A DNA stretch of 64,000 nucleotides, taken from an uncultured Verrucomicrobiota bacterium. Lineage in GTDB: Bacteria > Verrucomicrobiota > Kiritimatiellia > JAAZAB01. Made by a program: the position numbers and the translations under genes. Where the stretch lies: NCBI GenBank assembly GCA_964491945.1, contig CAZBHO010000008.1:471-64470 (forward strand). Reading direction: 5' to 3'. A model generated the notes under the pieces. It saw nothing but the letters and a program-made list of their open reading frames with translations, searched no databases and was not told the origin of the DNA. The number at the start of each line of letters is the position of its first letter. The first letter of the stretch is position 1. This document shows positions 45,173 through 64,000 of this stretch, in pieces.

Positions 45173-45186
45173 ATAATTAGACAGCT

Positions 45187-46188: not shown

Positions 46189-46221
46189 TTTTTGAACATG
46201 TAGGAATACAAGAGGTGTATT

Positions 46222-46705: not shown

Positions 46706-47710
46706 TTATTTCTTCGTCAACGGCTCAGATGGTGCATAAAATATAATCTGTGAGCCAAAGTTCTCAAACTCAAATGGAACGTATAAAAAATCCTTTAATT
46801 TCATTAAAAGCGAATCTCTTTTCTCTGGTGGAACAAAGAAAAGCATAAAGCCACCCCCCCCTGCTCCAAGCAGCTTTCCACCTATTGCTCCAGCGGATAG
46901 CGCCGCTTCATATATTTGATCCACCAGGTCAGTGCTTATGTGCGAGCTTAATGATCTTTTTAACAACCAACCTTCATGAAGTAATTTACCGAACTCTACT
47001 AAGCTGGTATTGCTAGCAAGAATTTTGATAGCTTCCTGAACCATTTCTTTCATTGTGGACAATTCTTTTGCTCTGTTTGGTGTGTTCTTAATCTGCTCTG
47101 CTGCTATTTCGGACGCGTGTCTGGATAATCCTGTAAACATGAGAACCAAATGGTTATGGAAATCTTCTAATCTGGCTGGTGGCAGAATAATTGGTTCTAT
47201 TATAAACCGATCGCCCGGTAGAAACATTAATCTATTGAACCCACCTATCGCAGCTGTGATTTGATCTTGCACGCCAACGTTTTCTTTTAGGATATCTCGC
47301 TCTATATGTATGGCTTCTCGCGCAAGAGAGATTTTATCTGTCATATTATATTTTAGAGCATTTAAGGCATTAAGCAAACCGACGGTAAATGATGAACTGC
47401 TGCCAAGTCCAGATCTTGCAGGAAGGTCTCCATCATGGTGTATTTCCACACCATCCTGTATGTTTTTATATTTCAAACAGGCTCTTACAGAGGGATGTTT
47501 GATTTCATCTATTGTTTTAACTTCTTCCACCTTTGAATAAGCCACACGGTATTTATGCTCAAAAAAAGGAGGCAAATATCTGCATATCAGGTAACAGTAT
47601 TTATTTATACTTGTGGCAAGCACCTCACCGCCATGCTCATTATACCAGATAGGATAATCAGTTCCACCACCAAAGAAAGAGATACGATATGGCGTTCTTG
47701 TTATAATCAT
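46706..47710 (-). CDS. GHMP-family sugar kinase (HddA/heptose-7-phosphate kinase-like)
   Basis: 334 aa with the GHMP motif 'PARSGLGSSSSFTVGLLNAL'. Converges on fliN with a 10-bp gap. Confidence 0.6.
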   Translation of the reverse strand: MIITRTPYRISFFGGGTDYPIWYNEHGGEVLATSINKYCYLICRYLPPFFEHKYRVAYSKVEEVKTIDEIKHPSVRACLKYKNIQDGVEIHHDGDLPARSGLGSSSSFTVGLLNALNALKYNMTDKISLAREAIHIERDILKENVGVQDQITAAIGGFNRLMFLPGDRFIIEPIILPPARLEDFHNHLVLMFTGLSRHASEIAAEQIKNTPNRAKELSTMKEMVQEAIKILASNTSLVEFGKLLHEGWLLKRSLSSHISTDLVDQIYEAALSAGAIGGKLLGAGGGGFMLFFVPPEKRDSLLMKLKDFLYVPFEFENFGSQIIFYAPSEPLTKK

Positions 47711-47716
47711 AAGGAC

Positions 47717-48355
47717 TTATGATTTCTTTTTTTCTTTTTCGTTTATACCATCTAACTCTTTCCGGGTGGTTAATACGGCGTCAACCAGTCCGTAATCTTT
47801 TGCTTCTTCTGGTGACATATAGTAATCTCTATCTGTATCTTTTGCCACTGTTTCAACAGGTTTGCCTGTGTGTTTTGATAGTATGCCATTTAAGATGTCC
47901 CTTATTCTAAGGATTTCTTTTGCCTGGATACTTATATCAGAGGCAGCACCTTGCACGCCACCCCAGGGCTGATGCATCATTATTCTGGAATGAGGCAGAG
48001 CATATCTTTTGCCTTTCGTTCCAGCAGCAAGCAGAACTGCTCCCATACTGGCAGCTTGTCCAACGCAATAGGTTGCAACATCGCATTTTACAAACTGCAT
48101 GGTGTCATATATAGCCATTCCGGCCGTTACAGAGCCGCCCGGTGAATTTATATAAAAATGAATTTCTTTTGCAGAATCTTCTGCCTGCAGAAAGAGCAGT
48201 TGTGCCACTATAAGGCTGCTAACTTCATCTGTGATAGCTGTGCCTAAAAAAATAATTCTTTCTTTCAATAAACGTGAATAAATATCGTAGGCTCTTTCGC
48301 CCCTGCCTGTTTGCTCTACCACTATCGGTACTAACATCTGACTATGTGTTTGCAT
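47717..48355 (-). CDS. clpP: ATP-dependent Clp protease proteolytic subunit
   Basis: 212 aa with the active-site Ser in '[14 protein letters not shown]' and His in 'RIMMHQP'. Confidence 0.9.
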
Positions 48356-48370
48356 AAAGTTTCCTTTCTG

Positions 48371-49708
48371 TTAACGTTTAAAAAGCCTTGCAAATATGTT
48401 GCCACTGCCACCTATCTCGGCATTATTTAGCAGCCACTCCATCGTCTTCTCATATAATATGTGCATCTTTACACTCATAAATAAATCTCTTTTTCTTAAA
48501 TTTTCCTTATATTCATCAGGATTACGCCCTGCTGATAATGCTTGCTGCTCTATGTATGCATTAACCTCATCATCAGATACTTCAATATTTTCAGCTTTTG
48601 CTATGTCATAGATGATAAAATCCAATTTCACTCTCCTGGCAGCAGTATCCATCATTTGTTCTTTGTTGTTTTTAATGAACTCTTCTTTGTCAAAATCGTG
48701 TATGCCTGACATAAGAGCTCTTAATTTTATGGAGCTGGCCATTCGTTCGACTTCATCTACGATAAGAGAAGGAGGAATTTCCAAATCTGTTTTTTCTAAA
48801 AGATAATTTGATAATTCTTCGCGTAAAGCTTCCTTCTTTTTCTGGGCAGCAGCTTTTTCTAGAGCCGTTTTTATGCGGGCTTTTAGTTCATCTACTGTTT
48901 TAAATCCTTCGGGGTTTTTGCTCAAAAATTCATCCAGTTCTATAGGCTTCCATGTTAGTAAGGATTTTATTTTTACTTTATAAATCACCCTTTTGCCAGC
49001 AATAGATTTTACAGCGAAATTTTTCGGAAAATTTATCTCCACATCGCGCTCTTCATTAATGCCCATCCCTATTAGATGATCTTCAAAATTAAGATAAGGT
49101 TTAATCTTATTGGTTTCAACATCTCTGCCTATTGCTATAAAAGAATTTTTTAACGACGGATCCAATGCTTCTACTGGCTTGCCATCTATTGTTCCATCAT
49201 AATCGATAATAGCTGAGTCGCCATCTTCCATTTTTTGATGCTCACTTGGCTTTAATCCACCATATTCCATTAGTATTTCTTGTAAACGCTTTTCAACTGT
49301 TTCATCGGTTATAGTGGTTTCTTCGGGTTTCTTGAGTGGAATACCTTTATATTTTGGCAACTTAAGAGGAGGAACAACTTCAAGTGTCATTTCATATTCA
49401 AATGATTTGCCACGTTCAGGAATACCTTCTATATTAAGAAGCGCTATGGGTTTGATATTAGCTTCTTTTATTGCTTGTGCGTATGTCTCTTCAACAATAT
49501 GTTGTTTAACCTCTTCTTTTATATCCTTATTAAAGTGGTTATAAATAAGTTCTTTTGGAACAGATCCTCTTCTAAAGCCATCTAATTTTGCATTTTTTTG
49601 ATACAAATCTATAACTTTATTAAACACTTCATCCACTTTTTCTGATGGCATTTCAACCGATATTTTTTTACAACATGGAGATATTTCTTCAACTTTAACT
49701 GCATTCAT
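48371..49708 (-). CDS. tig: Trigger factor
   Basis: 445 aa with the N-terminal ribosome-binding 'GFRRGSVPKELI' motif and a PPIase/C-domain layout. Lies upstream of clpP. Confidence 0.85.
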   Translation of the reverse strand: MNAVKVEEISPCCKKISVEMPSEKVDEVFNKVIDLYQKNAKLDGFRRGSVPKELIYNHFNKDIKEEVKQHIVEETYAQAIKEANIKPIALLNIEGIPERGKSFEYEMTLEVVPPLKLPKYKGIPLKKPEETTITDETVEKRLQEILMEYGGLKPSEHQKMEDGDSAIIDYDGTIDGKPVEALDPSLKNSFIAIGRDVETNKIKPYLNFEDHLIGMGINEERDVEINFPKNFAVKSIAGKRVIYKVKIKSLLTWKPIELDEFLSKNPEGFKTVDELKARIKTALEKAAAQKKKEALREELSNYLLEKTDLEIPPSLIVDEVERMASSIKLRALMSGIHDFDKEEFIKNNKEQMMDTAARRVKLDFIIYDIAKAENIEVSDDEVNAYIEQQALSAGRNPDEYKENLRKRDLFMSVKMHILYEKTMEWLLNNAEIGGSGNIFARLFKR

Positions 49709-49820
49709 AAAAACACCATTATAAAAATTATAAAAAAATCTGCTGTTTTATTTGTTTGATAGAAAACCTACATTAAAGCAACAAAAGAGCCAACATTCAA
49801 TAGAAAAATGGAGGCTTATA

Positions 49821-51383
49821 CTACTCTTGCAAACTCATAAGAAACTCTGCATTGCTCTTTGTTTTTTTGAGTTTGCCTATAACCAGTTCCATTGCTTCCA
49901 CAGGTGGAACGCCATTCAGTGCTTTTCTCAATATCCATATTTTATTTAGCTCATCTGGATGCAAAAGCAGCTCTTCTTTACGTGTTCCAGATTTTTCTAT
50001 ATTGATTGCAGGAAAGATCCTTTTATCGACCAGATGTCTATCGAGACAAAGCTCCATATTGCCTGTGCCTTTAAACTCTTCAAATATAACTTCATCCATA
50101 CGACTGCCTGTATCAATCAACGCTGTTGCTATAATTGTAAGGCTACCTCCATTTTCGGTGTTTCTGGCAGCTCCAAAGAACCGTTTTGGCTTATGCAACG
50201 CGTTTGCATCAACACCACCTGAAAGTATTTTTCCGCTGTGTGGCTCAAGGGTGTTGTAAGCTCGTGCTAATCTCGTGATACTATCAAGCAGGATAACAAC
50301 GTCTTTTCCGCATTCCACCATTCTTTTTGACATTTCTATGACCATCTCAGCAACCTGCGTGTGACGTTCCGGTGGCTCATCGAAAGTGGAAGAAAGAACA
50401 TGCGCTTTCGTATTGCGTTCCATATCTGTAACTTCTTCTGGGCGTTCATCTATCAGTAGCACTATAAGATATACATCAGGATGATTTGCAGAGATGCTGT
50501 TCGCTATTTTTTGGAGCAGGACTGTTTTGCCCGTGCGTGGTGGAGCAACTATCAGCCCGCGCTGCCCCATACCGATAGGAGTAAAAATATCCATCACTCG
50601 CATAGATATTTCCGAGCTTTCTCTTTCAAGAATGAAGCGTCTGTTGGGAAATAGGGGAGTAAGATTTTCAAAGGGAATCTTGTGATCTGAGGTTGATGGG
50701 TCCCTGCCATTTATTTTATCTACACGCAACATAGCAAAGAATCTTTCTTTATCCTTTGGTGCGCGGATTTCGCCTTCTATCTGGTCTCCTGTGCGCAAGG
50801 CAAAACGTCTTATCTGCGAAGGAGAAATGTATATATCTTCAGGACACGGTAAATAGTTGTAATAGGGTGAGCGTAAAAATCCAAATCCATCTGGCAGTAT
50901 TTCTAAAACACCCTTACCGGACATTGTTCCATTTTGCCTTGCATTTGCTTTAAGTATTTCAAAAATAAGTTCATGCCTGCGAAGTGCACCCACATCTGTT
51001 ATTCCGAAACTTTCTGCAACTTTGCATAACATTGGCACACTCATTTTTTGTAGGTCAGATAGAAGAAGATGTCTGCCTCTATTTTGATTAGGTGTGGTAG
51101 CAGATGTAACTGTGGGAGAGTCAGTTGATGTCTGATTTGAATTTTCTGTTTGTAAAGGTGGCGCTTCTTTTCCTTCAGTGTTTGCAACCACGTTTCCATT
51201 TCCAAAATTTTTTATGTTTTCAGTTTCTTCGTGGGGCACACGACAAACAGGTGGTTGTGAATCGTTTGCATTGTATATTTTCGAATTACTGGTTCTCTCT
51301 TTTGTGTTTGAATTTTTGTGTTGCACACCACGACTTGTTCGCCGTGTTCTTGATGATGTGTTGTTTTGATTCTTTTCTTCCAT
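49821..51383 (-). CDS. rho: Transcription termination factor Rho with a ~100-aa N-terminal low-complexity extension
   Basis: 520 aa with Walker A '[25 protein letters not shown]', an RNA-binding domain and a hexamer C-terminal domain. The N-terminal 1-105 is Asn/Ser/Thr/Arg-rich. Confidence 0.9.
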
Positions 51384-51402
51384 TATTTGTTTTTCTCCAT
51401 CT

Positions 51403-52038
51403 TTAACTTGTTTTTTTTATATGGTTTAATAGGTTTGCTACTTGCTGCTTTAAAAAATTCTTATCGCCAGAGTTGATTAATACATAATCGGATAGTTTCA
51501 TTTTTTCATCTATAGGAAGCTGAGCATTGATTCTTAAAAGAGCATCTTGCCTCGTTAGGTTCCGATATTTTATTAGCCTTTCAATTTGTATATCCACAGG
51601 AGCTGCAACGCATATTATAGAATCCCAGCCTGTGGTGTACTTTTTCTCGAACACAAGAGGGATAATTGCCATCGCAAGAGCTGTTCCTTTAGCAGATTTT
51701 TTTTGTAAAGCAATATCCTTTTTCCATTGATCAATTATTTCCATAACAGGTGGATGCAATATCTCTTCAAGTTTCATCCTTGCGCTGTAGTCTTTAAACA
51801 CTATTTTGCCAAGCTTTTTTCTATCAATACCATGCCTATTGGCTGCCACAGTTCTTCCAAAAGTCTCTATGATTTTATTTGTTATTTTTTCATCAGATTT
51901 AAGCAAGTGATGAACTATTTCGTCAGCCTCAATAAGGCAAATATCAGGATATAGGTCCTTAAAGTAAGTAGCTGCTAGGCTCTTGCCACATGCTATTCCC
52001 CCTGTTAGACATATATACTTTAAGCATCTTTTATTCAT
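51403..52038 (-). CDS. coaE: Dephospho-CoA kinase
   Basis: 211 aa with a P-loop '[11 protein letters not shown]'. Confidence 0.8.
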
Positions 52039-54043
52039 TTTTTTGAGAGGTATCGTTCCTGGTATTTATTTTAAAAATAGCCTCGTGTGGGCTAGTGCCC
52101 TTTGGATCATACATTAAAGCCTCTTCTGCCTTAATCAGAGCTTCGTTAGTCTTCCCTAATTGCAAAAGGCGAGTGCTCTCTCTGGCAAGTTCTATAGCTC
52201 TTGCCTCCTCAAATGGTGTTATTACTCTAAAAACACGATACTTGGAGTTTTCCCATAACTTTATAAAATATCGGCTTTTATCCGGAGAAAACTCAAATAT
52301 CCTTGCTGGCGCAGAAGGCGATGGATTAAGCGCATTTATAAAATATCGCATCTGCAATTCTTCAAAATATGGATAAAATTCTCCCATAGAATACACAAGT
52401 AAAGAAACTCTATTGCTTGCACACCATCTTCTTAAGGCATCCTCATCATATAAAAACAATGCCTTGCCATATTCTTCAATTCGTTTGCGATTCCGCACAC
52501 TTTCATATTTTGGGTGTAATACAATTGGGCATCCACCATAAGCAAGCAGATATGCGCTCAATCCAAAATTGGCGAGTACTGGCTCGCCTCCTAAATTTTT
52601 TGTAATCCACTCTATTAGTTCCTTACGCTGTGTAAGATATGATATTTTATGTCCCCATTGTGAAGGGTTGGATATTGAGTTTGTCCCTTCAAGTACCACA
52701 CAAACAATGAGACAGGTTATTATAACCGTTCTTTTTAGTAAATTTTTCTCGGATAGTGCATCTTTAAACAGCCATCCGCATAATCCTGCACAGCATATAG
52801 CAAGAAAAACAAGAAAACGTTTAAATAAGAAAAAAGTTATTAAAGAAACAACGAAAAAAACAACTAACGTTATCCCTTCCTTCGCAACAAAGTGTTTTGC
52901 TCTTCTTACAAGTAGTATGGCTGCAAAGAAAGATGGGAAAAGTATTGCAGGAAATAAATAGAATGTCAACTCTAAATTTACAGAATCCAGTGCAGGAGTC
53001 CATAATATCCTCTGATTGAAGGTAAGGAGAGCAGGATCAGCAGGTTTTTTATTCAAAAATTTTAATTTTGCTAATAGTAATTCTGTGAAATGCCCATAGT
53101 TCTGCCAATAAGATGAGGCAAAAATAATTGATGTAAAGAATGGAATTAATGCCACAGTAACCTTGATGAGGATGTTTCTTATATTTTGTGTTTGTAAAAC
53201 TGGTATCTTGTTTAGGAGCAGAGCAATCAGCCCTGCATAACCGAGCAACATAGATGGCGAAAGAAGAAAAGAATGTGTTGCAAGATATGGATTTATTAAG
53301 CCAGCCAATATCAAAGCCAATAATGAAAAAGAAAAAACGCTAGTTTCTGCTTTCGTTAATCTGCACAGCACTGCCTTTATAAGCGATATCCCGTTAAAGA
53401 GCATTAAAGGATATTGTATTAAATCCCACGTTGTCATAGCAATTGCCAATGATATTGCGGCAAAAGCACTTGCTGTTAATAGGACTGACTGCTTTTGCGT
53501 ATTGAGTGCCACTGAATTTATCGCCATGTATAAAATAAGCAGGGGCAAGGCAAAGTTTTCGTGAGATAGCTCCTGCCCTGTAGAGCGCATAACGGAAGCT
53601 ATTCCTATTGCATAATAGAGCGTTCCCAAGAAGGATGCCATAATTGAGCCCGTAAAACTTTTTATCCATATTGCCATAAACACAATACCAAGAGAGAACC
53701 ATCCTATTGAGAGCAATCTTACTCTATCTTCAAGCGGAATAGATTTTGGCATCATTTTTGCAAGAAATGCATATACATATTCGGCACCTATTTCTAAATT
53801 TTTATGTGGATTGACTCCATATGGCCATTCTATTGCCTTGTCAAGTTCAGGTAGCCTTCCCGCTGAATAGAGCATTTCCACATAACGATACTCAATGGCA
53901 CTCTCGAGATCAAATGGTAAAGGATATCCAAAAACCTTGTATTGAGTAGCAAGCACGTAATATCTTACTAGAAATCCTGTTGCAAAAAGCAAAACGCAAA
54001 TCAGAGTAAAAATGAACACGCTTTTATTTTTTAATAACATCAA
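52031..54043 (-). CDS. Polytopic membrane protein with a C-terminal TPR; GT-C-like (PMT/ArnT/DUF2723-type) glycosyltransferase candidate
   Basis: 670 aa with at least 10 predicted TM helices and a periplasmic-loop 'FDLESAIEY' acidic motif. The C-terminal ~100 aa is TPR-like (LGKTNEALIKAEEALMYDP). Confidence 0.4.
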   Translation of the reverse strand: MMLLKNKSVFIFTLICVLLFATGFLVRYYVLATQYKVFGYPLPFDLESAIEYRYVEMLYSAGRLPELDKAIEWPYGVNPHKNLEIGAEYVYAFLAKMMPKSIPLEDRVRLLSIGWFSLGIVFMAIWIKSFTGSIMASFLGTLYYAIGIASVMRSTGQELSHENFALPLLILYMAINSVALNTQKQSVLLTASAFAAISLAIAMTTWDLIQYPLMLFNGISLIKAVLCRLTKAETSVFSFSLLALILAGLINPYLATHSFLLSPSMLLGYAGLIALLLNKIPVLQTQNIRNILIKVTVALIPFFTSIIFASSYWQNYGHFTELLLAKLKFLNKKPADPALLTFNQRILWTPALDSVNLELTFYLFPAILFPSFFAAILLVRRAKHFVAKEGITLVVFFVVSLITFFLFKRFLVFLAICCAGLCGWLFKDALSEKNLLKRTVIITCLIVCVVLEGTNSISNPSQWGHKISYLTQRKELIEWITKNLGGEPVLANFGLSAYLLAYGGCPIVLHPKYESVRNRKRIEEYGKALFLYDEDALRRWCASNRVSLLVYSMGEFYPYFEELQMRYFINALNPSPSAPARIFEFSPDKSRYFIKLWENSKYRVFRVITPFEEARAIELARESTRLLQLGKTNEALIKAEEALMYDPKGTSPHEAIFKINTRNDTSQKNE

Positions 54044-54067
54044 AAAGAGGGATACCTTTAAGCTTTT

Positions 54068-54937
54068 TCAAAATAATTCCATTTTTGTCAACTCTTTTGA
54101 CAGGGAGTGAAATTCTAATTCTTCGTATAGTTTTAATAGTCCTTTTTTATCAGGAGCTTTCATTGCGATTTCTCTCTGGTCAATCTGAATATCTAAAGCA
54201 GTATTTAATTCCATCATTTGCTGATTACGCTGTAAAATTGCCAGATTATTTTGAAGAGCAAGTCTTGCCTTTTCAGGCTTTAATAGATGTGCATTAGCTA
54301 TTATTTTTTCCAGCGAGCCATATTCATTTAGCCACTTTGCAGCAGTTTTTTTTCCGTCTCCAGGTAGTCCTTTTATGTTATCAGAATTATCACCAACAAT
54401 GGCTAAAAAATCAACTATTTGTTCTGGATATACACTCATTTTATTGAAAACTTCGGCTCGTCCCATCTTGACTTCTATGTGAGATGGTTGAAGGATAAAA
54501 ATTTTTTCATTTACAAGTTGCATTAAATCTTTATCAGATGTCAAAATTAAAATTTCATCAAAGTCTTTTGATAATTTGACTGCAAGCGTTGCTATAACGT
54601 CATCTGCTTCCGAATGTTCCAGGCGTTTGAAAGCAATTCCAGAGAGAGCGAGAAATTGTTCAATAAACGGGAATTGCATTTTTAACTTTTCGGGCATAGG
54701 TGGGCGCTGTGCTTTATAAGTTTCAAGCAAGGCTTTTCTTTCTGGAGGAATTCCGCCATCAAAGACAACGATAATCCCTTTTGGAGCGAACTTGTTGATC
54801 ACGCTATTTATCGTTTTAATAAAGCCAAATACGGCGTTCGTCGGTGTGCCATTTTTAGTGCTTAAAGATGGTATCGCAAAAAAAGAACGATAGGCAATGC
54901 CCATAGCATCAATAAGTAAAAAAGGATTTTTGTCCAT
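54068..54937 (-). CDS. 5'-3' exonuclease / FLAP-endonuclease family (Pol I N-terminal domain-like)
   Basis: 289 aa with 'LLIDAMGIAYRSFFA', 'VVFDGG...ETYKAQRPPMP' and an H3TH region. Confidence 0.75.
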   Translation of the reverse strand: MDKNPFLLIDAMGIAYRSFFAIPSLSTKNGTPTNAVFGFIKTINSVINKFAPKGIIVVFDGGIPPERKALLETYKAQRPPMPEKLKMQFPFIEQFLALSGIAFKRLEHSEADDVIATLAVKLSKDFDEILILTSDKDLMQLVNEKIFILQPSHIEVKMGRAEVFNKMSVYPEQIVDFLAIVGDNSDNIKGLPGDGKKTAAKWLNEYGSLEKIIANAHLLKPEKARLALQNNLAILQRNQQMMELNTALDIQIDQREIAMKAPDKKGLLKLYEELEFHSLSKELTKMELF

Positions 54938-54992
54938 ACCTGTAAAGACTATTGGGGTTAATTATAACAAAACATTAGAAAATATGATCAAA

Positions 54993-57900
54993 TTAACTTC
55001 CAGTATTTACCGCGGCAGATTCACCTGCTGTTACTTCAGGTTGCTCAATTTTGTTTCCTGCAGGATCAACCAACCTTGCTGTTACGAAAATCAATAAATT
55101 TTTCTTTATACTTTGTGTCGTCTTGCTTCTAAAGAGATAACCTACCAGAGGAATATCTCCTAGTATGGGGATCTTATCTTCTGTGGTTTGTTGATCTTCT
55201 TTTATTAAGCCGCCCATAACTACGGTTTGGCCATCGTAGACCTGTATCTTTGTGGTAATTTGTCGTGTATGGAATATTGGTTGACGCATTGTAATGTGTT
55301 GTGGCATCGAGCCACCTTCTGTTGGAACATCATAACCATAATCTATCCACTCAGCCAATTCTACCACCTGAGGGTTTAATTCAAGATCAATTGTATAAAA
55401 ATCGCTTCCCACAGTGGGCATACAGGAAAGGACAACACCGGTATCTCTTGTCTGGAACCCACCGGGGGTAATAACAACTCTGGTAAGTTGCTGGTTTCCT
55501 GTTGAGCCTCCGCTGGAAGTAGTTGTGCCAACCGATTGGACGTTTTGTTCAAATTCTGTAGGATAAATTAGTTCATGTACCACTTTAATTTCGGCATTTT
55601 GTCCGTTACGTGTTGTAACTTTTGGGGCAGAAAGTAAGTTGTTCCCAGTCTTTTGTTGCAGGGCATGGAGGATTACGGAGAGTTCTGGATTTGTAAGAAT
55701 GGATGAGATAGAGAATATTCCAGCCATACCGCCGCCCGGAGTGGCAACTATGCCTCCAGAAGATTTATCTAAATTGCGTAATCCTTTTGTAAAGGTATTC
55801 TTGTTTACTTGAATTCTTTCTCTTCCTGCTGGGAGAGGACTTGAACTCTTATTTTCAGCAATTTCCCAGTTATCAGTGAGCAGCCACTCAAGTCCTAATT
55901 CTTCAAGATCGGTCTGGTTAATCTCTACAAATCGTGCTTCTATTTCTACCTGAAGGGGTGGTTTATCTATGAGCCTCAAAATCCTATCAAAATCATCTAT
56001 ATTTTCTACTGTATTTTTAACAATCAGTAAGCCCAGGGCTGCGTTGTAAGTAATGGAACTTCCTACAGGGAATTGCACACCTGCATTAATAAAGAAGTTT
56101 TTAATTCCTAAGTGTTCAGGTGCACCACCTGCGGCGGGCTGAGCTCCACCAAGCGGCATTGTTTCTAATCCTGTTCCTCCACCAGCAGATTCGGCTGCGC
56201 CAGCACCTGCAAGGATGCTATCTATGACGCTTTTCTGTACACGTCGTGATACAGTTATCATATCACCATAAGGCATATTGGCAGGATATATCACAACACG
56301 ATTTTCGGTGATTCTATATTTCATACCTGTTACATCGCTGATATGCTCTATGATTTCCATCAGAGTCATAGGCCTTATTGCCTGAAGAGTAACTGTTGGA
56401 GGTTGATAAGCAGCCGTTAATGCTTCTACTCCACCTTCTGCAGGTTGTGTCTGTGTGGAGGAAGGCAATTTTAAGATGATGTTTACACCTTGTTTCTCTG
56501 GGTCCCTGATTTTGCTTTCTTCCATTAAGAAGCGAACAACATCCTGTAATCTTGCGTTATCCCAGTTTATATCAGTTATTTCTATCTGTTTTAGCTTATC
56601 CATTAATTGCCGCCTTTTAAGTTCGCTTTCGGTGCCTTTAACCTCTGTTGTGCCAGTTACAGCCATAGATTTTGCCTTTTTAGAGGGTTTAACAGGGGGT
56701 GTCCAGGTATCTCGTACCTGCGCCATTACTTCTTCTTTAAAGCGATTAAATTGATCTGTCTCTTGCTGATATTGTTCTTCTGCTATTTTCTTTAAATTTG
56801 CTGCGGCTTCAGTGTTTTTTGGATCCATAGCCAAAACTTCTTTAAAGTATTCTGATGCCTTATCCCACTCCTTAAGAATCATCCATTGCCTACCCTTATC
56901 CATTGTTTGACGAATTTTTGCTTTATAGGATGCATATTCGGGTTCTTCTCGCAGCGATTTTACAGGCGGTGGAGCAGCTTTAGCTTTTTTAAGATCTCTG
57001 TCAATTTGTTCTTTTAATCTCACTGCTTTTTGGTTCATGCTATTATGTATAAGCGATTGTTCAATCCATTTCCTTGCTTCTTCAAGATTTTCAGGAGTTG
57101 CACCTCTTTTTGCAAGGTCTAATGCTATTCTATATTCACATTCAGATCTGGCGATATTTGCCTGCTCTCTTACTTCTACTGTTCGTGGACGGCGTGGCAT
57201 AAGTTCCAGAGCTTTATTATACAAAGATACGGCTTCTTGGAACTCGTTCTTTAGCATTGCCTCTTGCGCTTGATTAATAAGTTTGAGTCCTTCCACTTCT
57301 TTCGCTTGCAAACGAATTTCTTCCTGCATTGCAAGCCGCTCTTCTTCCGTCGGTTCTCTCGGTGGTTCTTTAGGTTTTTCTACAACTGGTGCTGGTTTGG
57401 CTTCTGCAACAAGCGAGGTGCTTGCAGAAGGAGTTTCCTGAGCAGGTTTTATTTGGCTTGTGTCCTCTTGCTTTGATGGCTGATCTATTTCTTTAACTTC
57501 TTTTGCTTTTCTAGAAAACAAGCGTTGAAAGAAAGAAGGCTTTTCTTTACGAGCTTTGGTTTCTTCTTCTTTTGTTGTAGGTTCTATTTTTTCTATTTTT
57601 TTCTTTTCTTTAGGATGAGCTGTTGGTTCTACATCAGCTTTGATTGTTCGCTCAAGCTCAAAAGTTTCTTTTGATGCGGGGGGCGTTTCGATTGCGGCGG
57701 AAGAGGGAGGGGGTTCTTGGATGTCCCCATTCCTTTTTTCTCCTATAGTTTCTAGAGTTTTATTTTCTGCTTCTTTTGTTTCTTCCTTAATTTCTTTTTT
57801 CTCTTCGTTTATTTCTCTTTTCTTTTCTTCTGCTATCGCGATTGCCTTTTCTTCATCTTTTGCTGGTTCTGTGGCAATCATTTTTTCTTCTGCTGCTTTT

Positions 57901-58343
57901 GTTCCTTCTTCTTTTGCAGTGGCTGGCTGCTCACCTGCAGTTTCGGTGGTAAGGGATGAAACCTCCTCTGTTTTTTGTTCCTGCTTTTCTTTATTTTCTT
58001 CTGGTGTATCTTGGGTTGTTGTAGGTGTGGTGGTAACTTCAGTTGTTGCTGCTGCGTCTTTTGCTGTTTTTTCTGTCTCTATTGAAGATGCAGCCTTTTC
58101 TTGAGCAGATGTTGCTGGTTGAATTGGTTCTGATGGTTGTGCTTCATTTGGATGATTGGTTTCTATAGGCGCTGTGATTTCTGGAGGTTGTGTGGGTACA
58201 TCCTCCTTACCAGCTGTGGCATCTGTGATATTTTGGTCAGTGGTTGCTTCTTCTTGAGCAACTATTGCAAACACCCATAAAATACCAATTGCCACAAATA
58301 GAACAAATAACCCTCTTCTTGTTTTCTCCCTGTCACCTATCAT
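54993..58343 (-). CDS. pilQ: Type IV pilus/T2SS-type secretin (PilQ-like) with a long charged low-complexity N-terminal region and TPR-like repeats
   Basis: 1116 aa. An N-terminal TM/signal, about 300 aa that is E/K/T/P-rich, TPR-like helices (LYNKALELMP...), then N-domains and a C-terminal secretin domain (VVMGGLIKEDQQTTEDKIPILGDIPLVGYLFRSKTT...LLIFVTARLV). Confidence 0.8.
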   Translation of the reverse strand: MIGDREKTRRGLFVLFVAIGILWVFAIVAQEEATTDQNITDATAGKEDVPTQPPEITAPIETNHPNEAQPSEPIQPATSAQEKAASSIETEKTAKDAAATTEVTTTPTTTQDTPEENKEKQEQKTEEVSSLTTETAGEQPATAKEEGTKAAEEKMIATEPAKDEEKAIAIAEEKKREINEEKKEIKEETKEAENKTLETIGEKRNGDIQEPPPSSAAIETPPASKETFELERTIKADVEPTAHPKEKKKIEKIEPTTKEEETKARKEKPSFFQRLFSRKAKEVKEIDQPSKQEDTSQIKPAQETPSASTSLVAEAKPAPVVEKPKEPPREPTEEERLAMQEEIRLQAKEVEGLKLINQAQEAMLKNEFQEAVSLYNKALELMPRRPRTVEVREQANIARSECEYRIALDLAKRGATPENLEEARKWIEQSLIHNSMNQKAVRLKEQIDRDLKKAKAAPPPVKSLREEPEYASYKAKIRQTMDKGRQWMILKEWDKASEYFKEVLAMDPKNTEAAANLKKIAEEQYQQETDQFNRFKEEVMAQVRDTWTPPVKPSKKAKSMAVTGTTEVKGTESELKRRQLMDKLKQIEITDINWDNARLQDVVRFLMEESKIRDPEKQGVNIILKLPSSTQTQPAEGGVEALTAAYQPPTVTLQAIRPMTLMEIIEHISDVTGMKYRITENRVVIYPANMPYGDMITVSRRVQKSVIDSILAGAGAAESAGGGTGLETMPLGGAQPAAGGAPEHLGIKNFFINAGVQFPVGSSITYNAALGLLIVKNTVENIDDFDRILRLIDKPPLQVEIEARFVEINQTDLEELGLEWLLTDNWEIAENKSSSPLPAGRERIQVNKNTFTKGLRNLDKSSGGIVATPGGGMAGIFSISSILTNPELSVILHALQQKTGNNLLSAPKVTTRNGQNAEIKVVHELIYPTEFEQNVQSVGTTTSSGGSTGNQQLTRVVITPGGFQTRDTGVVLSCMPTVGSDFYTIDLELNPQVVELAEWIDYGYDVPTEGGSMPQHITMRQPIFHTRQITTKIQVYDGQTVVMGGLIKEDQQTTEDKIPILGDIPLVGYLFRSKTTQSIKKNLLIFVTARLVDPAGNKIEQPEVTAGESAAVNTGS

Positions 58344-58384
58344 AGATTGCTTGTTCTACCTTTGAGTGTTTATTTTTTGCTATT

Positions 58385-59467
58385 TTATTTTTTCTCCTCC
58401 TGATGAAGATCTTTTTGCTCTTCTTCAAGAGATAAACCTAAGTTGAACTCCTTGCCTGAAGACAAGTCAGAAACAATAACAGAATTAGTTTTAATGTCAA
58501 CTATCTTATGAGGTTTCTTGTTCAATTGGATTGTATCGCCTATTTTGCATATAAAAGTTTCACCGTTCAGAGTAAACAGGAGATGCACATAAATTGGGCC
58601 TTGTGTTCCTGTTTCACCCCTGATTAGCTTATATTTTTCACCTTTATTTTCGAATACAATTTCAGACTTATCTTCTTTGACTTTAACTCCACCTCTTGCT
58701 ACTTGCTGGATTATATTGGTATAGTAAACAAGTTGATATTTTTCTTCTTTTCCATCTTCAGAACGCAGTGTTATGGAGTCATTCAGTTTAATATATAAAT
58801 CTTTTCCACTTAGAGTGTTTCGCAGACCGAACTTTTCGCCTTCAGCTGTCTTTATTATGCTATGAAACACGAGTGGTAAAGAAAGTCTTGCTATTTTCAA
58901 TACTTTTAAAGTGGAGGCATAAGGTGGATGTGAATTTGCGTCATTTGGTAAAGTTCCTTGCCTGTATTCTTCTATGTTGGAGAACAAATCTCCATCGCTA
59001 TCAGTTTTTGAATCATCAGAAAAAGGATTAAGTGCATGAGATTTTTCGTAGTCATCTGGGATAAGGTCATTATCTGAATCAGCTGGTGGTCTTGCTGCTT
59101 CTTCTGGTTGAGATGCTTTACAGTTAAAATAAGGACATTCCTTTGCTTCTGGTGGAATTGGTCTACCACAGGAGACGCAAGCGATACGTTCTTCTGCTGT
59201 AAACATTTTATTTGAGCGGATAGTTATCTGGAATGGAGCAGAAAGACTTTCTATAGCATTTTGGACTGGCTCTGTGTCAAAAGATTTTATAGCAGAAGAG
59301 ATAGGTGCTTGTTGCTGTTCATTGATCATAGATTGTAAACGGCTTTTCTCTTTATCCACCAGGATGATAAGCAACAAAACAGAAGCTAGGAGTCCTATTA
59401 AAACTAGAGCAAAAATCAGTTTTTCGTAAGATTTTTTAAGCAGCTCTAAAATTTCGTTTATTTGCAT
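58385..59467 (-). CDS. Hypothetical membrane-anchored protein with a zinc-ribbon and Asp-rich loops; occupies the PilP position
   Basis: 360 aa with an N-terminal TM, 'CVSCGRPIPPEAKECPYFNC' (C4 ribbon), 'DSDNDLIPDD' and 'DSDGDLFSNIEEY' (Ca-binding-like), and a beta-rich C-terminal domain. Confidence 0.45.
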   Translation of the reverse strand: MQINEILELLKKSYEKLIFALVLIGLLASVLLLIILVDKEKSRLQSMINEQQQAPISSAIKSFDTEPVQNAIESLSAPFQITIRSNKMFTAEERIACVSCGRPIPPEAKECPYFNCKASQPEEAARPPADSDNDLIPDDYEKSHALNPFSDDSKTDSDGDLFSNIEEYRQGTLPNDANSHPPYASTLKVLKIARLSLPLVFHSIIKTAEGEKFGLRNTLSGKDLYIKLNDSITLRSEDGKEEKYQLVYYTNIIQQVARGGVKVKEDKSEIVFENKGEKYKLIRGETGTQGPIYVHLLFTLNGETFICKIGDTIQLNKKPHKIVDIKTNSVIVSDLSSGKEFNLGLSLEEEQKDLHQEEKK

Positions 59468-59479
59468 ATTTCTTCAATG

Positions 59480-60469
59480 TTATTTTGTTTTTTGTACAGG
59501 CTTACCAGCCATCTTCATTATTTCTGCTTCTTCAAACGAAGGAGCGAAGGAATATACGTCAATTTCCAATTTGACTTCTAAATCTTCTCTGCCAATTATT
59601 ATGTTTCTTGCAAAATACATATTAGTGTTTGTCCCTGCACTGGTAGCATCGTTTTTCTGCATGGCAGGGGCATTTTGGATATTAAAATCCTTTCTTGCAT
59701 TTTGAACTTCTAGGGATTTCAATCTGATAAATGTGGGTGTTGATGCGAGGCTATTTAATATAGATAACAAAGATTTTTCAGAACATCTAAAGTTTACCTT
59801 GAATTGTTCATTGGTATAGAGAGAAGAGCCAGATGTATCCTGCCTTGTGGGTTGTTCGGCTGGTTGAGGAGCCTCGCTGCCACCGCGCCCTCTCCCGCGT
59901 TTTGGTACAGTTTCTACTCCGCTTTCAAACACTTCCCTATTAACTAGCAACAATTCTTTTATATTAGCATTAACCATCAACGTACAGATTTGCTCTATTA
60001 TAAACAATTGTTTCATAAGACGTGGCACTTCTTCTGGTGTGGGAAGTTGTCCGCTGGCGTATTTTTCAAAGCCAAAAGCGTATTTTTCTGGCAATTTTAT
60101 TCCTTTCCGTTCCATTGTCGTTCGCAGCATCGAAAGTTTGTGTTCCAATAGCCTCATAAATTCTGTGTTGCTTATTTGCTTGATGTGCACAGCTCCACTT
60201 TGCAACTCATCGTTGAGGTTATTAAATGTGTATGCCATCTTAATTATATTTGAAGATAATATAGCGAGGTTTTTTTCGTTGGGATAGGGTTGCCTTTTTA
60301 CAAGTTGATCATAAGTTTCCAGCATTTGTTTTAACTCGTTTTTCTGAACGAGATATTTTTTATATGAAGATATCAATCCTGTGGCTATAAGAACTGCCAA
60401 AACTAGTGCCACACTCAAAAATGCAGCAAGCATCTTATATTTTTTTATCTTTTCTATATCAAAGTTCAT
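59480..60469 (-). CDS. PilO-like bitopic inner-membrane pilus assembly protein (putative)
   Basis: 329 aa with an N-terminal TM (MLAAFLSVALVLAVLIATGLI) and a coiled coil. It sits between the pilM/N fusion and the PilP-like gene. Confidence 0.35.
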   Translation of the reverse strand: MNFDIEKIKKYKMLAAFLSVALVLAVLIATGLISSYKKYLVQKNELKQMLETYDQLVKRQPYPNEKNLAILSSNIIKMAYTFNNLNDELQSGAVHIKQISNTEFMRLLEHKLSMLRTTMERKGIKLPEKYAFGFEKYASGQLPTPEEVPRLMKQLFIIEQICTLMVNANIKELLLVNREVFESGVETVPKRGRGRGGSEAPQPAEQPTRQDTSGSSLYTNEQFKVNFRCSEKSLLSILNSLASTPTFIRLKSLEVQNARKDFNIQNAPAMQKNDATSAGTNTNMYFARNIIIGREDLEVKLEIDVYSFAPSFEEAEIMKMAGKPVQKTK

Positions 60470-60478
60470 TCCATTCCA

Positions 60479-62179
60479 TTAAATTGGATTTTTTAACGCA
60501 ATTTCTAATTTAAATTGACGTGCAAAATCATTAGCAGTTGGCATAGGCAAATGTACGATAGTTGTTTCTTCGGAGAATATGTTGGATTTAATTAGAGCAT
60601 CTCTAAAATCAGAAACAGATTTATCGTTTGCCTTATCAAGAAAGATCAAGCCTTCTATCATAATGTGTGTTGCTGCAGGTTCAAATAACACTTTGTTCGG
60701 ACGTTGCCCCGCATTGTTAGAAGAGGTATTTACTTTTTTGTGCGGGGTGAGAGAAACTATCCACATTCCATCAGGCAAAGCAGCATATATGGCATCTAGC
60801 ACTTGAAGCCAATCGGTACGTCTTTGCGTCAGAGCAATTAAAGTATCTATCTTTTTGTTTAATAACTCCTGTTGCATTTTCAGAGGTTGCATTTTTTCTT
60901 CAACCTGTCTCAATTCTGCCACAGATGTTTCAGCCTTTGCTTTGCGGTCAGCAAGCATTCCTGTCATTTTGGCAAAAAAGAACCACCAGCTTGCCAGTAA
61001 CAGCACAAAAAGAAACGCGGCTGCTATCAGGAGAGGCTGCTTTTTACGGAAAGCTCGTTCATCAGCCATTTTTTGAGGTAATAAATTTATCTCCAGCGGG
61101 CAAGGGAATGCATGGCGAAGGGCAACCCCGACAACAGCCCCCATAACGTGCGCACAAGCACCCACTTCTTCTTCGGATATCCTTTCACTTACAAGGATGT
61201 TTCTGAAAGGATTTAGATACTCAACATCGGTCTTAAATTTTTCTTTAAAGAACTCATCTGTTCTGGAAATAATAGAAGTTCCTCCTGCAAGTAGTATAAG
61301 AGAGGGGGCACTTCCACCCTGTTGGGTTTTATAGAAGTTGATTGAGCGTTCTATTTCAACGTGTAGGCGGGTCATTACTCCTCTAATGGTTTTTGAAACT
61401 TTTGAGAGCACCTTGTCTGAAAAATCTTCGTAAGAACCGCCAAAAGCCACTGTGCCATGCGCAAATTTAAGCTCTTCAGCATCTTTGAATGGCAGATTAA
61501 ACTCTTTCATAATCTGTTGTGTGATTACATTGCCGCTACCAACAATTGGGAGATTTCGGCTGAAAAATTGCCCTTTCTCTAAAAAGACTAAATTTGTTGA
61601 GCGTGCTCCAATATCTACCACCAGAATACAATCTTCTACTTCTCCATAATTATATCGTACAGCATTACTAATAGCCATCGGCGCAACATCAATAACCTCT
61701 ATGTCATCAAGCCCTGCTGCCACCACGCAGTCTGTCATATTCTCCACAATTTCTTTCTTCATTACCACCAGCATAACGTTCAGTTCCTGTTCTGATGAGC
61801 CCATAAGTTGGTAATCCCATACAACCTCTTCTATGGGAAACGGCACGTTCTGCTGTGCTTCAAAAAGAATGGTCTGACGGATTTTACTGCGCTTTACAGG
61901 CGGCAATTTTACCAAACGCAGGAAAGCGGATTGCCCACTAAGAGATACTAGCGCCGGTGCCTTTGATATAGCCTTTTTCTTTAGTGCACGTTGGATAGTA
62001 TCAACTATGTTTAAGGAAATATCTGTTTCTCCGCTGATATTTTCTATACCAAGTGGCTCAACGCAAAGATTTATTGCTTCCAGCCCCTCTTTTGTAAAAA
62101 TGAATTCTCCTAACTTAAGCTCGCTTGAGCCAATATCCAGTGATATTATTCTGTTTTGTTGGCCACCAAAAAACATCAC
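60479..62179 (-). CDS. pilM: PilM-PilN fusion (actin-like ATPase-fold PilM + TM/coiled-coil PilN)
   Basis: 566 aa. The N-terminal 'IISLDIGSSELKLGEF' matches the PilM actin-like fold. At about residue 380 there is a TM (LLIAAAFLFVLLLASWWFFF) followed by a coiled coil typical of PilN. Confidence 0.65.
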   Translation of the reverse strand: MMFFGGQQNRIISLDIGSSELKLGEFIFTKEGLEAINLCVEPLGIENISGETDISLNIVDTIQRALKKKAISKAPALVSLSGQSAFLRLVKLPPVKRSKIRQTILFEAQQNVPFPIEEVVWDYQLMGSSEQELNVMLVVMKKEIVENMTDCVVAAGLDDIEVIDVAPMAISNAVRYNYGEVEDCILVVDIGARSTNLVFLEKGQFFSRNLPIVGSGNVITQQIMKEFNLPFKDAEELKFAHGTVAFGGSYEDFSDKVLSKVSKTIRGVMTRLHVEIERSINFYKTQQGGSAPSLILLAGGTSIISRTDEFFKEKFKTDVEYLNPFRNILVSERISEEEVGACAHVMGAVVGVALRHAFPCPLEINLLPQKMADERAFRKKQPLLIAAAFLFVLLLASWWFFFAKMTGMLADRKAKAETSVAELRQVEEKMQPLKMQQELLNKKIDTLIALTQRRTDWLQVLDAIYAALPDGMWIVSLTPHKKVNTSSNNAGQRPNKVLFEPAATHIMIEGLIFLDKANDKSVSDFRDALIKSNIFSEETTIVHLPMPTANDFARQFKLEIALKNPI

Positions 62180-62188
62180 GCTGACTTT

Positions 62189-62818
62189 CTAGAAGGATTG
62201 TCCTTTGATGAGTTCATAATTATCATAGGCAATAAAAGCAAATGGCGTCTGTTGTTTGTTGAGCAATAAACCCTCTACGGTCCTGCCGCTAAACATTCGC
62301 CACCATGGCTGCTTATCGGCTGGCTCGGCTTCTAGAGCAACAAGTTCGCCTTTGTAATAAACTTCTACTGCCACTCGCTCAACTACGCCATACCGGAATA
62401 AAGTCTGAGGTCTGATATACATAACACTTTGATGCTGCTTGCCTTTCATTATGTCTATATGAGTTACAGTCCCTTTTAGTAAAGTATAAGCACCTGTTTT
62501 TGGATGTTTAAGAACAGCATAATATCTGAATTCAAGTTCATCTATTATTTCAGATTTCGTATCAAATTTTACAAGGATTCTGTGCCATTCGCGTGGCTGT
62601 GCCATAGTCTCGCTTTCTGTTGTGGTATATTCAGGAGTTTTAACTATTGCCGCAGGACCTATACCAATCAGCTTTTTAATAGAAATATCTTCTTTAATCT
62701 CTGCAGCTCCTGATGGTTGAGTGGCGTTTGGTGCTGGTGCTCTTGTTGCAGGGCGAGCCTGTGGGCTGGCAGAGTATGTAAACAAACATAATAAGATGAA
62801 GAAAGATATAATCCTCAT
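62189..62818 (-). CDS. Hypothetical secreted protein, first gene of the pilus-like operon
   Basis: 209 aa with a signal peptide (MRIISFFILLCLFTYSASPQA) and a Pro/Ala-rich linker. Confidence 0.4.
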   Translation of the reverse strand: MRIISFFILLCLFTYSASPQARPATRAPAPNATQPSGAAEIKEDISIKKLIGIGPAAIVKTPEYTTTESETMAQPREWHRILVKFDTKSEIIDELEFRYYAVLKHPKTGAYTLLKGTVTHIDIMKGKQHQSVMYIRPQTLFRYGVVERVAVEVYYKGELVALEAEPADKQPWWRMFSGRTVEGLLLNKQQTPFAFIAYDNYELIKGQSF

Positions 62819-62993
62819 AGCATAGTCCCTTTCCCTTTACAAAAATTGAACCGATAAATATAGAGGATTGTATTTTTTTTCTTTCTGAAGTCAAATTGAA
62901 AAGAAAAAATTTTTTTTAGTAAGAGCTTGCGTTTTTTGTTTTTGTGAATAAGTTATTTATCAAAACATACGAAGGTTTAGAGAATGGCAGATA

Positions 62994-64000
62994 ATAACAT
63001 AAGAGCACAATCGTTGGCGCTACTGCAAGACCAGCGGCAGGTACAGATTCTGGCGCCTCAATTGCGGCAGTCGCTTGAGCTTCTACAGATGCCTGTACTT
63101 GAATTGCAATCTATAATTCAGCACGAATTAGAGCATAATCCCACTCTTGAGCAGAAATCTAAAGACGTCATTTCTATTGATGAAGTTGATGATAGTGCTG
63201 CTGGAACCATTCAAGATGATGAGCTTTCTTTTAAAAACGAGTTTGAAATCCTCTCAAAAATGGATGAAGAAAGCTATAACTATTTTCTGCAAGGGACAGA
63301 ACTTGAGCCATTTGATTCTGAAACAGAAAAGAAAAGAGATTTTTTCCTTACATCCAATCAGATTCCAGAATCTCTCCAGCAACATCTCACTGATCAGCTT
63401 ATGCTGGTTAATCTTTCTGAACGTGAGCATAAAATTGGAGAACTAATCATAGGCTCAATAAACGAAGATGGCTATCTTACGCAAACAGTGGAAGAACTGG
63501 CAGCTTCAACAGGATGTGAGGTTTCTTTAATTCAAGATGTTCTTGCTATCATTCAGGATTTTGACCCGATAGGAGTGGGAGCTTCTGATTTGAAAGAATG
63601 TTTGCTTCTGCAGCTTAATAGGCTTGGGCATGGTGAAGGGGTTGCTGCCCAGATAGTAAAGAGCCATCTTGATGCGCTTGCAAAGAAACATTATGGGGAA
63701 ATTGCTCGCGCTCTTGGGGTTAATGAGGCAGAAGTTATAAGGGCAGCAAAAGTTATCAGCACTCTTGATCCTAAACCGGGTAGACGTTTCAGTGCTGAAG
63801 CCACGCAATATGTTGTGCCTGAAGTTATTGTTGAGAAAATGGAAAATGGTGAGTATAGAGTTGTGCTCTGTAATGATCTTTTGCCTGCTCTGCGCATAAG
63901 TAAGCAATATAAAAAAATGCTTTATGAGGAAAAAACCACTGAGGAAGTTAAGCAATATATCAAAGAGCGAATGCGGGCAAGTGTGTTTCTCATAAAAAGT
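62994..64000 (+). CDS. rpoN: RNA polymerase sigma-54 factor RpoN (N-terminal ~335 aa; runs past the window end)
   Basis: Hand translation from ATG 62994 gives MADNNIRAQSLALLQDQRQVQILAPQLRQSLELLQMPVLELQSIIQHELEHNPTLEQ... (the Gln/Leu-rich region I of sigma-54) and later ...DPKPGRRF... The supplied ORF list omits it because the ORF is open at the window end. Confidence 0.8.

Follow-up and report, generated by a model that had tools for sequence, protein, structure and literature searches.

The stretch of DNA analyzed here (the window; 64,000 nucleotides) is taken from contig CAZBHO010000008.1 of assembly GCA_964491945.1, which belongs to an uncultured Verrucomicrobiota bacterium of the Kiritimatiellia lineage (JAAZAB01). 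On its minus strand, at 62818-54993, the window carries an operon of five co-oriented open reading frames (ORFs) that encode proteins of 209, 566, 329, 360, and 1116 amino acids (aa) and are separated, in order, by 9, 9, 12, and 41 nt. An earlier reading of the letters (the original prediction) had described the genes as a divergent pilMNOPQ-like operon with 9- to 41-bp gaps, and all five ORFs were found as it had placed them. The lead gene (62189-62818) encodes the 209-aa Amuc_1102-family protein (MUL2A) and is followed by the 566-aa PilM-PilN fusion of the Amuc_1101 family (MUL2B; 60479-62179, with a GTG start and an ATG one codon on), the 329-aa Amuc_1100-family protein (59480-60469), the 360-aa Amuc_1099-family protein (58385-59467), and the 1116-aa Amuc_1098-family secretin (54993-58343), which closes the operon. 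As argued below, this locus is very probably orthologous to the Akkermansia muciniphila Amuc_1102-1098 operon (type IV pili/MUL2), its host being a Kiritimatiellia/Lentisphaerae-like bacterium of the Planctomycetes-Verrucomicrobia-Chlamydiae (PVC) group, and supplies a type IV-filament machine with its envelope-spanning alignment module and its channel in the outer membrane.

When the five products were compared with NCBIfam, each found its top match in one of the Amuc_1098-1102 families (NF042912, NF042425, NF038287, NF045709, and NF042424), and the genes stood in the same order as in A. muciniphila (1102-1101-1100-1099-1098). Measured against the curated equivalog cutoffs, the 360-aa protein passed Amuc_1099_fam (57.3 versus 50 bits, E=1.9e-15) and the 209-aa protein passed Amuc_1102_rel (78.6 versus 55 bits, E=4.3e-22), whereas the 1116-aa (Amuc_1098_fam, 449.5 versus 750 bits, E=2e-134), 329-aa (Amuc_1100_fam, 131.6 versus 180 bits, E=4.2e-38), and 566-aa (Amuc_1101_fam, 479.2 versus 650 bits, E=2.4e-143) proteins scored below. 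A profile scan with one genome per species determined that 486 species-level genomes encode a PilM-PilN relative; the synteny and median-length counts given hereafter refer to the best 80 loci of these 486 relatives, searched by tblastn with the window proteins. Nearly all of the 80 are metagenome-assembled genomes (MAGs) labelled Kiritimatiellia, Lentisphaerae, or Verrucomicrobiota/Verrucomicrobiia, and the closest PilM-PilN identity was 60-61%, to Kiritimatiellia-labelled MAGs; this places the genome of the window outside the scanned representatives and probably in a Kiritimatiellia-like lineage. With family E-values between 1e-15 and 1e-143 and a gene order that is repeated across the 80 loci, chance is excluded, and the sequence matches place the operon in a distant branch of the Amuc_1098-1102 families. 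The only Pfam domains assigned to the five proteins were the secretin core and TPRs of the 1116-aa protein and PilM_2 of the 566-aa protein.

The second gene encodes one polypeptide of which residues 11-356 match Myxococcus xanthus PilM (3jc8_Ma, E=3.5e-33) and residues 362-561 match M. xanthus PilN (3jc8_Na, E=2.8e-6). Its PilM part scored above the TIGR01175 pilM cutoff (140.9 versus 133 bits) and matched Pfam PilM_2 (PF11104, E=1.5e-39), and the Pfam PilN match was weak (E=0.17). The Pfam, NCBIfam, and PDB matches delimit a cytoplasmic actin-like PilM domain (aa 8-356; 61112-62158, minus strand), which is followed at the fusion junction by an INLLP motif (aa 364-368, in the sequence EINLLPQK; 61076-61090) and then by the single transmembrane (TM) segment that hydropathy indicated (aa 383-401) and a predicted periplasmic part (aa 402-566) that is PilN-like by the 3jc8_Na match, the helix and this part together occupying 60482-61033. 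In canonical systems, INLLP is the N-terminal PilN peptide through which free PilN binds PilM. Five residues around the junction (C360, P361, E363, L366, and P368) were invariant in 16 family members, and the match to 5eou_A, an engineered Pseudomonas aeruginosa PilM-PilN(1-12) chimera, spanned the junction through residue 369.

MAG-derived sequence can hold errors, and the first ~300 aa of the secretin are of low complexity and not conserved; an artefact could therefore be imagined in which a frameshift fused PilM to PilN and a wrong start codon made the secretin too long. However, the fusion ORF is continuous, nearly all of the best 120 homologues listed are 553-605 aa long, the median ortholog ORF length across the 80 related genomes is 571 aa, and the INLLP junction motif is invariant, while 54 of the 58 secretin ortholog ORFs measure 852-1144 aa and likewise carry N-terminal extensions and signal peptides. 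An artefact of this kind is thus vanishingly improbable, and a frameshift, which the original prediction had named as a risk, is ruled out by the lengths of the 120 homologues. Judging from its matches and its homologues, the 566-aa protein is a natural PilM-PilN fusion, as had been proposed. The Akkermansia cluster has the same fusion, its Amuc_1101 profile comprising 608 positions.

The 329-aa protein has an N-terminal TM anchor, after which come a helical stalk and a ferredoxin-like domain of PilO/GspM type that contains disordered insertions. A PDB search with the single sequence did not find Amuc_1100; a profile of 25 orthologs did, matching the Amuc_1100 crystal structures (6KNY/6LAD/6LAF) nearly over its full length (E=1.3e-13). 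The family is large, with 1132 clusters at 50% identity in an exhaustive search (E<=1e-3), compared with 3 matches in a word-indexed search. Structure prediction, for which database proteins were the input, gave an AlphaFold model of this family from 65 homologues (pLDDT [predicted local distance difference test] 85.6), and PilO, EpsM, and PilN folds were among its links to solved structures. In the model the hydrophobic N-terminal helix runs straight into the long stalk helix, which fits a bitopic inner-membrane topology. At the level of sequence, Pfam PilO gave no match, and thus PilO family membership was not detected; the GspM model matched weakly (27.8 versus 60 bits). The Amuc_1100 homolog nevertheless stands in the place of PilO and shares its fold, which agrees with the long PilO-like protein of the original prediction.

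The product in the PilP slot, of 360 aa, has one N-terminal TM segment (aa 17-35) and no lipobox. Behind the anchor lies a Cys4 zinc-ribbon-like knuckle (C97/C100/C111/C116, CVSCGRP...CPYFNC, aa 97-116; 59120-59179, minus strand), followed by two Asp-rich, putatively Ca2+-binding loops of TSP3 type, DSDNDLIPDDYE and DSDGDLFSNIEE (aa 130-170; 58958-59080), and by a C-terminal all-beta region (aa 187-345; 58433-58909) for which the predicted structure gave a homology region (HR) fold of the GspC/PilP type. The model of this family reached a pLDDT of 78.8 overall and ~90 in the C-terminal beta region. The four Cys were nearly invariant in a 14-sequence alignment and absent from the Verrucomicrobiales-type member P0014, and at least 33 of 53 orthologs kept a strict CxxC...CxxC. 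The DxDxD loops start at residues 130 and 156, with D156/D158/D160 invariant among 14 homologues; the TSP3 label was based on this motif and on PF18884 TSP3_bac assignments precomputed for 7 homologues, not on a match to the 360-aa protein itself. The slot proteins of Verrucomicrobiia are shorter (~268 aa) and have neither the knuckle nor the TSP3 loops. Of what had been claimed for this protein, the TM anchor, the four cysteines, the two DxDxD loops, and the beta-rich C terminus were borne out, whereas the zinc ribbon was not firmly identified, since Pfam Zn_Ribbon_1 stayed sub-threshold (E=0.011). The stretch between the anchor and the HR region is predicted to be periplasmic, and the knuckle may for this reason be disulfide-stabilized rather than Zn-bound. 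The protein does not correspond to a PilP lipoprotein of roughly 180 aa with an HR domain, and the suspicion that it could be an ordinary PilP was dispelled, though its C-terminal domain has the PilP/GspC HR fold. GspC proteins have a TM anchor, an HR domain, and a PDZ or coiled-coil C-terminal domain; the 360-aa protein resembles them in its TM anchor and in the HR fold of its model, and no PDZ or coiled-coil C-terminal domain was seen in it. According to the structure model, then, the Amuc_1099 family carries a GspC/PilP-type HR domain that is predicted to dock on the secretin.

The secretin consists, in order, of a signal peptide, a low-complexity stretch (aa 31-335), a TPR region (~340-545), a conserved N-domain region, and the core (aa 894-1093), and it matched Pfam Secretin (E=1.7e-37) and TPR models, in accordance with the earlier assignment; Amuc_1098_fam covers residues 332-1100 only. 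The ~300-aa low-complexity stretch is rich in E/T/K/A/P, predicted to be disordered, and not conserved in sequence among orthologs, and it is much shorter in Verrucomicrobiia, where the secretins are 852-899 aa long. With respect to PilQ, the protein scored 137.7 bits on TIGR02515 against a cutoff of 284.35 bits, and AMIN gave no match, TPRs being present instead. A profile of the orthologs matched PilQ (6w6m, E=4.3e-31) and GspD (6i1x, E=4.8e-31) equally, covering the TPR, N3, and core regions only.

The lead gene product, described as secreted in the original prediction, has a Sec-type signal peptide (MRIISFFILLCLFTYSASPQA). Phmmer matched the 209-aa protein to the crystal structure of Amuc_1102 (PDB 7DSZ, E=3.9e-9), and its gene lies upstream of pilMN in 76 of the 80 related loci. 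The signal peptides of its orthologs end consistently in A-x-A|Q type, and the G-F-T-L-x-E prepilin motif was absent from these orthologs. Because the signal peptides are of the ordinary Sec type and lack a prepilin cleavage motif, the protein is not processed as a type IV pilin; by its sequence features it is a Sec-exported protein with an immunoglobulin (Ig)-like fold, not a prepilin. The fold of Amuc_1102 has been likened to that of an archaeal pilin (PMC13174399).

Where the contigs of the relatives were long enough, a one-strand order recurred, namely the 209-aa gene, pilMN, the 329-aa gene, the 360-aa gene, the secretin, an exonuclease, a Dpy19-like gene, coaE, and rho. In Verrucomicrobiia loci, genes for PilC/GspF, PilB/GspE, and PilT lie just beyond the exonuclease and convergent to the cluster; in L063, one such locus, they occupy 17222-21361 on the minus strand and score 402, 634, and 463 bits, respectively, and the PilT-family ATPase scored 462.6 bits against a cutoff of 319.1 bits. 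In a Kiritimatiellia-type locus (L007), whose PilM-PilN is 58% identical to that of the window, five prepilin-type genes stand directly upstream on the same strand (562-4162, plus strand). Proteins like Verru_Chthon cassette B/C/D are among them, GspG and GspH models match, and an unannotated 1035-aa ORF comes next. A linkage of pilB/pilT/pilC or prepilin genes to the cluster in relatives is new, and so are the Cys4 and TSP3 insertions of the 360-aa branch and the assignment of a GspC/PilP HR fold to the Amuc_1099 family.

With canonical type IVa pili (T4aP; reference structures 3JC8, 2YCH, 5EOU, 2RJZ, and 2Y4X, from Pseudomonas, Myxococcus, Neisseria, and Thermus), the module shares the M, N, O, P, Q order, a PilM above the TIGR01175 cutoff, the INLLP peptide, the PilO and PilP HR folds, and the secretin core. 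That its components depart from the canonical set, as the original prediction had suspected, was borne out. Canonical PilN is a separate bitopic protein, whereas here PilM and PilN form a single chain; the PilO-like protein, of ~330 aa, contains disordered inserts and was not matched by Pfam PilO; the PilP-like protein is anchored by a TM segment rather than through a lipobox and bears Cys4 and TSP3 modules in addition; TPRs occur in the secretin, where AMIN was not found; an Amuc_1102-like lead gene is added; and the window is without pilin or motor genes. The type II secretion system (T2SS; reference structures 3OSS, 6HCG, 1UV7, and 6GHU) is approached in other respects. The fusion matches the layout of GspL (a cytoplasmic actin-like domain, a TM segment, and a periplasmic ferredoxin-like domain), the HR adaptor is TM-anchored like GspC, and the 329-aa protein shows GspM-like and EpsM-like fold matches. 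The architecture thus mixes T4aP-like features (the gene order, the true PilM, and PilT nearby in relatives) with T2SS-like ones (the GspL-like fusion, the TM-anchored GspC-like adaptor, and GspE/GspG-type scores in relatives).

The main alternative is a T2SS-like role in secretion. Folded proteins, for example glycoside hydrolases and sulfatases, would then be driven out through the secretin by a short pseudopilus, and the fusion, the 329-aa protein, and the 360-aa protein would take the parts of GspL, GspM, and GspC, respectively. Apart from the GspL-like architecture and the weak GspM match, this is favored by the canonical secretin models, among which GspD ranked top (176 bits versus 138 for PilQ), by the L063 ATPase, which passed the GspE cutoff (631.7 versus 630.25 bits), and by the GspG and GspH matches of the L007 prepilins. 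However, the GspD (176.4 versus 351.35 bits), GspL (E=0.083), and GspM scores of the window proteins are all far below cutoff, the secretin profile does not discriminate between PilQ and GspD, and the L063 ATPase scored 634 on the PilB model as well. Moreover, the cytoplasmic domain belongs to PilM proper and not to GspL, the M/N-O-P-Q order is that of T4aP, and the PilT-family retraction ATPase in the Verrucomicrobiia neighborhood is typical of type IVa pili, not of T2SS. A secretion role is on this evidence unlikely.

The cluster itself was already catalogued, and the earlier statement that its adaptors are not described does not hold: there are five curated NCBIfam families, two crystal structures, genetics in Akkermansia, a published MUL2 locus, and a synteny survey in Verrucomicrobiales. 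The products of the Akkermansia cluster, which includes the TLR2-active Amuc_1100, are abundant in the envelope fraction (PMC5332112), and a review describes it as a gene cluster for type IV pili in which Amuc_1098 is PilQ (PMC10688800). Two more recent sources call the cluster MUL2 and report it as important for mucin acquisition (bioRxiv 10.64898/2025.12.30.696933; PMC13174399), and a figure legend in the latter shows a secretion channel, dephospho-CoA kinase, and rho as MUL2 neighbors in Akkermansiaceae loci. The window locus shares with MUL2 the five families, their order and orientation, and the downstream coaE and rho, and its 209-aa protein is homologous at the sequence level to the Amuc_1102 structure; the 329-aa family and the 209-aa protein have the folds of the Amuc_1100 and Amuc_1102 crystal structures. 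What is new here is that the full five-gene module, together with its downstream neighbors, reaches Kiritimatiellia- and Lentisphaerae-labelled genomes. Compared with Akkermansia, the host is Kiritimatiellia/Lentisphaerae-like and not a member of Akkermansiaceae, and the proteins are distant. The Amuc_1099 homolog has the Cys4 knuckle and two TSP3 loops, of which P0014 lacks the former and Verrucomicrobiia lack both, and the secretin has the ~300-aa low-complexity extension, which falls outside the Amuc_1098 profile.

On the reading that we consider very probable, that of a PVC-group MUL2 ortholog, the five proteins would work as follows. The cytoplasmic PilM domain would be covalently joined to its own PilN segment, comprising the INLLP peptide, the TM helix, and the periplasmic domain, and the PilN part would pair in the periplasm with the PilO-fold Amuc_1100 homolog. 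The membrane-anchored Amuc_1099 homolog would span the periplasm and dock through its GspC/PilP-type HR domain on the N-terminal domains of the TPR-bearing secretin. While the data show family membership, the fusion, the folds, and the synteny, we infer both contacts, that of the PilN part with the PilO-like protein and that of HR with the secretin N-domains, by analogy with the T4aP and T2SS structures 3JC8 and 3OSS, and we likewise infer the topology and the nature of the fiber. In this way the pore in the outer membrane may be coupled to a motor and platform in the inner membrane (PilB/PilC, with or without PilT, whose genes would lie elsewhere in the genome), and a pilin or pseudopilin fiber would pass through the pore as it is extended and possibly retracted. 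The Sec-exported, Ig-fold Amuc_1102-like protein may be an extra, lineage-specific component in the periplasm or at the surface. We favor a pilus-forming and possibly retractile machine, the output of which, by analogy with the Akkermansia literature, may be polymer adhesion, polymer acquisition, or both.

Several observations weigh against this reading. Three of the five products, those matching Amuc_1098, Amuc_1100, and Amuc_1101, scored under the equivalog cutoffs, and functional equivalence to the Akkermansia proteins is therefore not guaranteed. The 64-kb window contains no pilin, prepilin peptidase, PilB, PilC, or PilT genes; a look through the whole window for the prepilin motif and for a PilB/PilT-type Walker box found neither, and all the larger ORFs were assigned to chemotaxis, flagellar, regulatory, or housekeeping functions. 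For this reason the motor and the fiber are unverified for the host genome. When the 329-aa family was aligned by hhalign with the PilM-PilN family, the probability was 5.7%, which is not significant, so no PilN/PilO relationship appeared at the sequence level. Foldseek against PDB likewise returned the PilP/GspC match of the 360-aa family model without significance (best E 0.012, with PilP 3jc8_Pa at rank 48), and the profile search with secretin orthologs did not detect an N0 domain. Finally, Amuc_1100 has been placed on the cell surface or the pilus (PMC5332112, PMC10688800), which is at odds with an inner-membrane role such as its PilO-like position and its fold would suggest.

The same hardware might serve a different purpose, in a reading that overlaps with the one above, namely as mainly an uptake device in which a retractile type IV-like fiber or the channel itself would bring large glycans or glycoproteins to the periplasm. 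This has been proposed for mucin and MUL2 in Akkermansia; in a Kiritimatiellia-like host, other polysaccharides would be the cargo. The reading accords with the accounts of MUL2 as important for mucin acquisition or transport in PMC13174399, bioRxiv 10.64898/2025.12.30.696933, and a review (PMC12418764), and with the PilT gene that adjoins the cluster in Verrucomicrobiia. Furthermore, the operon is kept across free-living and gut lineages in a housekeeping neighborhood, which suggests a core physiological role. On the other hand, PMC13174399 favors surface attachment, Pfam and NCBIfam detected no glycan-binding domain in any of the five, and the sequence itself says nothing about cargo. Mucin or polymer acquisition, which is known from Akkermansia genetics, and the TLR2 activity of Amuc_1100 are phenotypes reported for A. 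muciniphila alone (PMC5332112, PMC13174399, PMC12418764, bioRxiv 10.64898/2025.12.30.696933). Uptake is thus conceivable as the output of this operon, yet doubtful.

A further proposal, which goes beyond the MUL2-ortholog reading, is that the cluster encodes the core of an ancient, vertically inherited trans-envelope machine, neither a classical T4aP nor a T2SS, that is common to Verrucomicrobiia, Kiritimatiellia, and Lentisphaeria and lies within a block of housekeeping genes. In polysaccharide-degrading PVC members, a type IV filament engine would have been fitted for the capture or import of large glycans by lineage-specific parts, namely the Sec-exported Amuc_1102 Ig-fold protein, the periplasmic PilP/GspC hybrid with Cys4 and Ca2+ loops, and the TPR secretin, whose disordered tail is long. 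We regard this as speculative and, as matters stand, quite improbable.

In front of the operon, a sigma-70-like promoter candidate, TTGACT-16 nt-TACAAT (62867-62894, minus strand), gave the top score in the scanned region with a 10/12 match. It precedes the first start codon by 49 nt, inside a 165-bp spacer; promoter-like matches in the scanned region totaled no more than the shuffled expectation, and the element is a candidate only. On the other side of the spacer lies rpoN (sigma-54; TIGR02395, E=2.6e-63), which is divergent from the operon (62984-64000, plus strand) and runs past the window end. We ruled out rpoN as a conserved upstream neighbor, as none of the 80 related loci showed an rpoN match. 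Downstream of the secretin, on the same strand and with small gaps, follow genes for a 5'-3' exonuclease, a Dpy19-like GT-C membrane protein, coaE, rho, trigger factor, clpP, and a GHMP kinase. Together with the pilus-like operon, 12 co-oriented genes with very short gaps or overlaps occupy 46706-62818 on the minus strand, and the pilus-like module sits inside a housekeeping array, not an island. The Dpy19-like gene (52031-54043, minus strand) encodes a 670-aa polytopic membrane protein that matched Pfam Dpy19 (E=1.6e-13) and had no NCBIfam match. Dpy19 is a C-mannosyltransferase family of GT-C type that is best known in animals. The block from the secretin through the exonuclease, the Dpy19-like gene, and coaE to rho was kept in 38 of the 80 related loci. 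A functional tie of the glycosyltransferase to the cluster, such as glycosylation of envelope proteins, was considered and set aside, synteny being its sole support and the conserved block also holding unrelated housekeeping genes; on reading the five operon proteins, no WxxW motif was seen.

The remainder of the window holds a flagellar cluster (32892-46695, plus strand; fliF, G, H, I, J, fliK, flgD, a hook/rod gene, motA, motB, fliL, fliM, and fliN) and a chemotaxis cluster (5346-11651, plus strand; cheA, W, D, X, B, and HDOD proteins), because of which the host is probably motile. A. muciniphila, in contrast, is described as non-motile (PMC12418764). Genes for two-component regulators of sigma-54 type lie at 28894-31657. 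Between fliJ and fliK, an ORF of 209 aa (37913-38542, plus strand) weakly matched FlbB (E=5.2e-9), at 36 bits below the 110-bit cutoff; FlbB is a collar protein of spirochaete periplasmic flagella. A 751-aa family-B DNA polymerase with polymerase and exonuclease domains is encoded at 19675-21930 (minus strand) and adjoined by a glycogen/carbohydrate phosphorylase gene (21955-24483). The gene at 155-4381 (plus strand) encodes a 1408-aa protein, probably a large one of surface or adhesin type, in which Ig-like and fn3 repeats are numerous and FG-GAP repeats stand at the C terminus. Neither the Rfam scan nor the tRNA scan gave a match in the window.

Few gut-microbiome proteins have been studied as much as Amuc_1100, known as a TLR2 agonist and probiotic effector, while the mechanics of the machine encoded with it are poorly defined. 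The findings described here give that machine a concrete, testable architecture, and they pose the question by what route an inner-membrane protein of PilO type could reach the host. For annotation, genes of this kind are to carry an Amuc_1098-1102-type pilus-like label, not hypothetical protein or FtsA. If the proposal of an ancient trans-envelope machine were true, Amuc_1100-family proteins would be inner-membrane PilO equivalents and not pilus-surface proteins.

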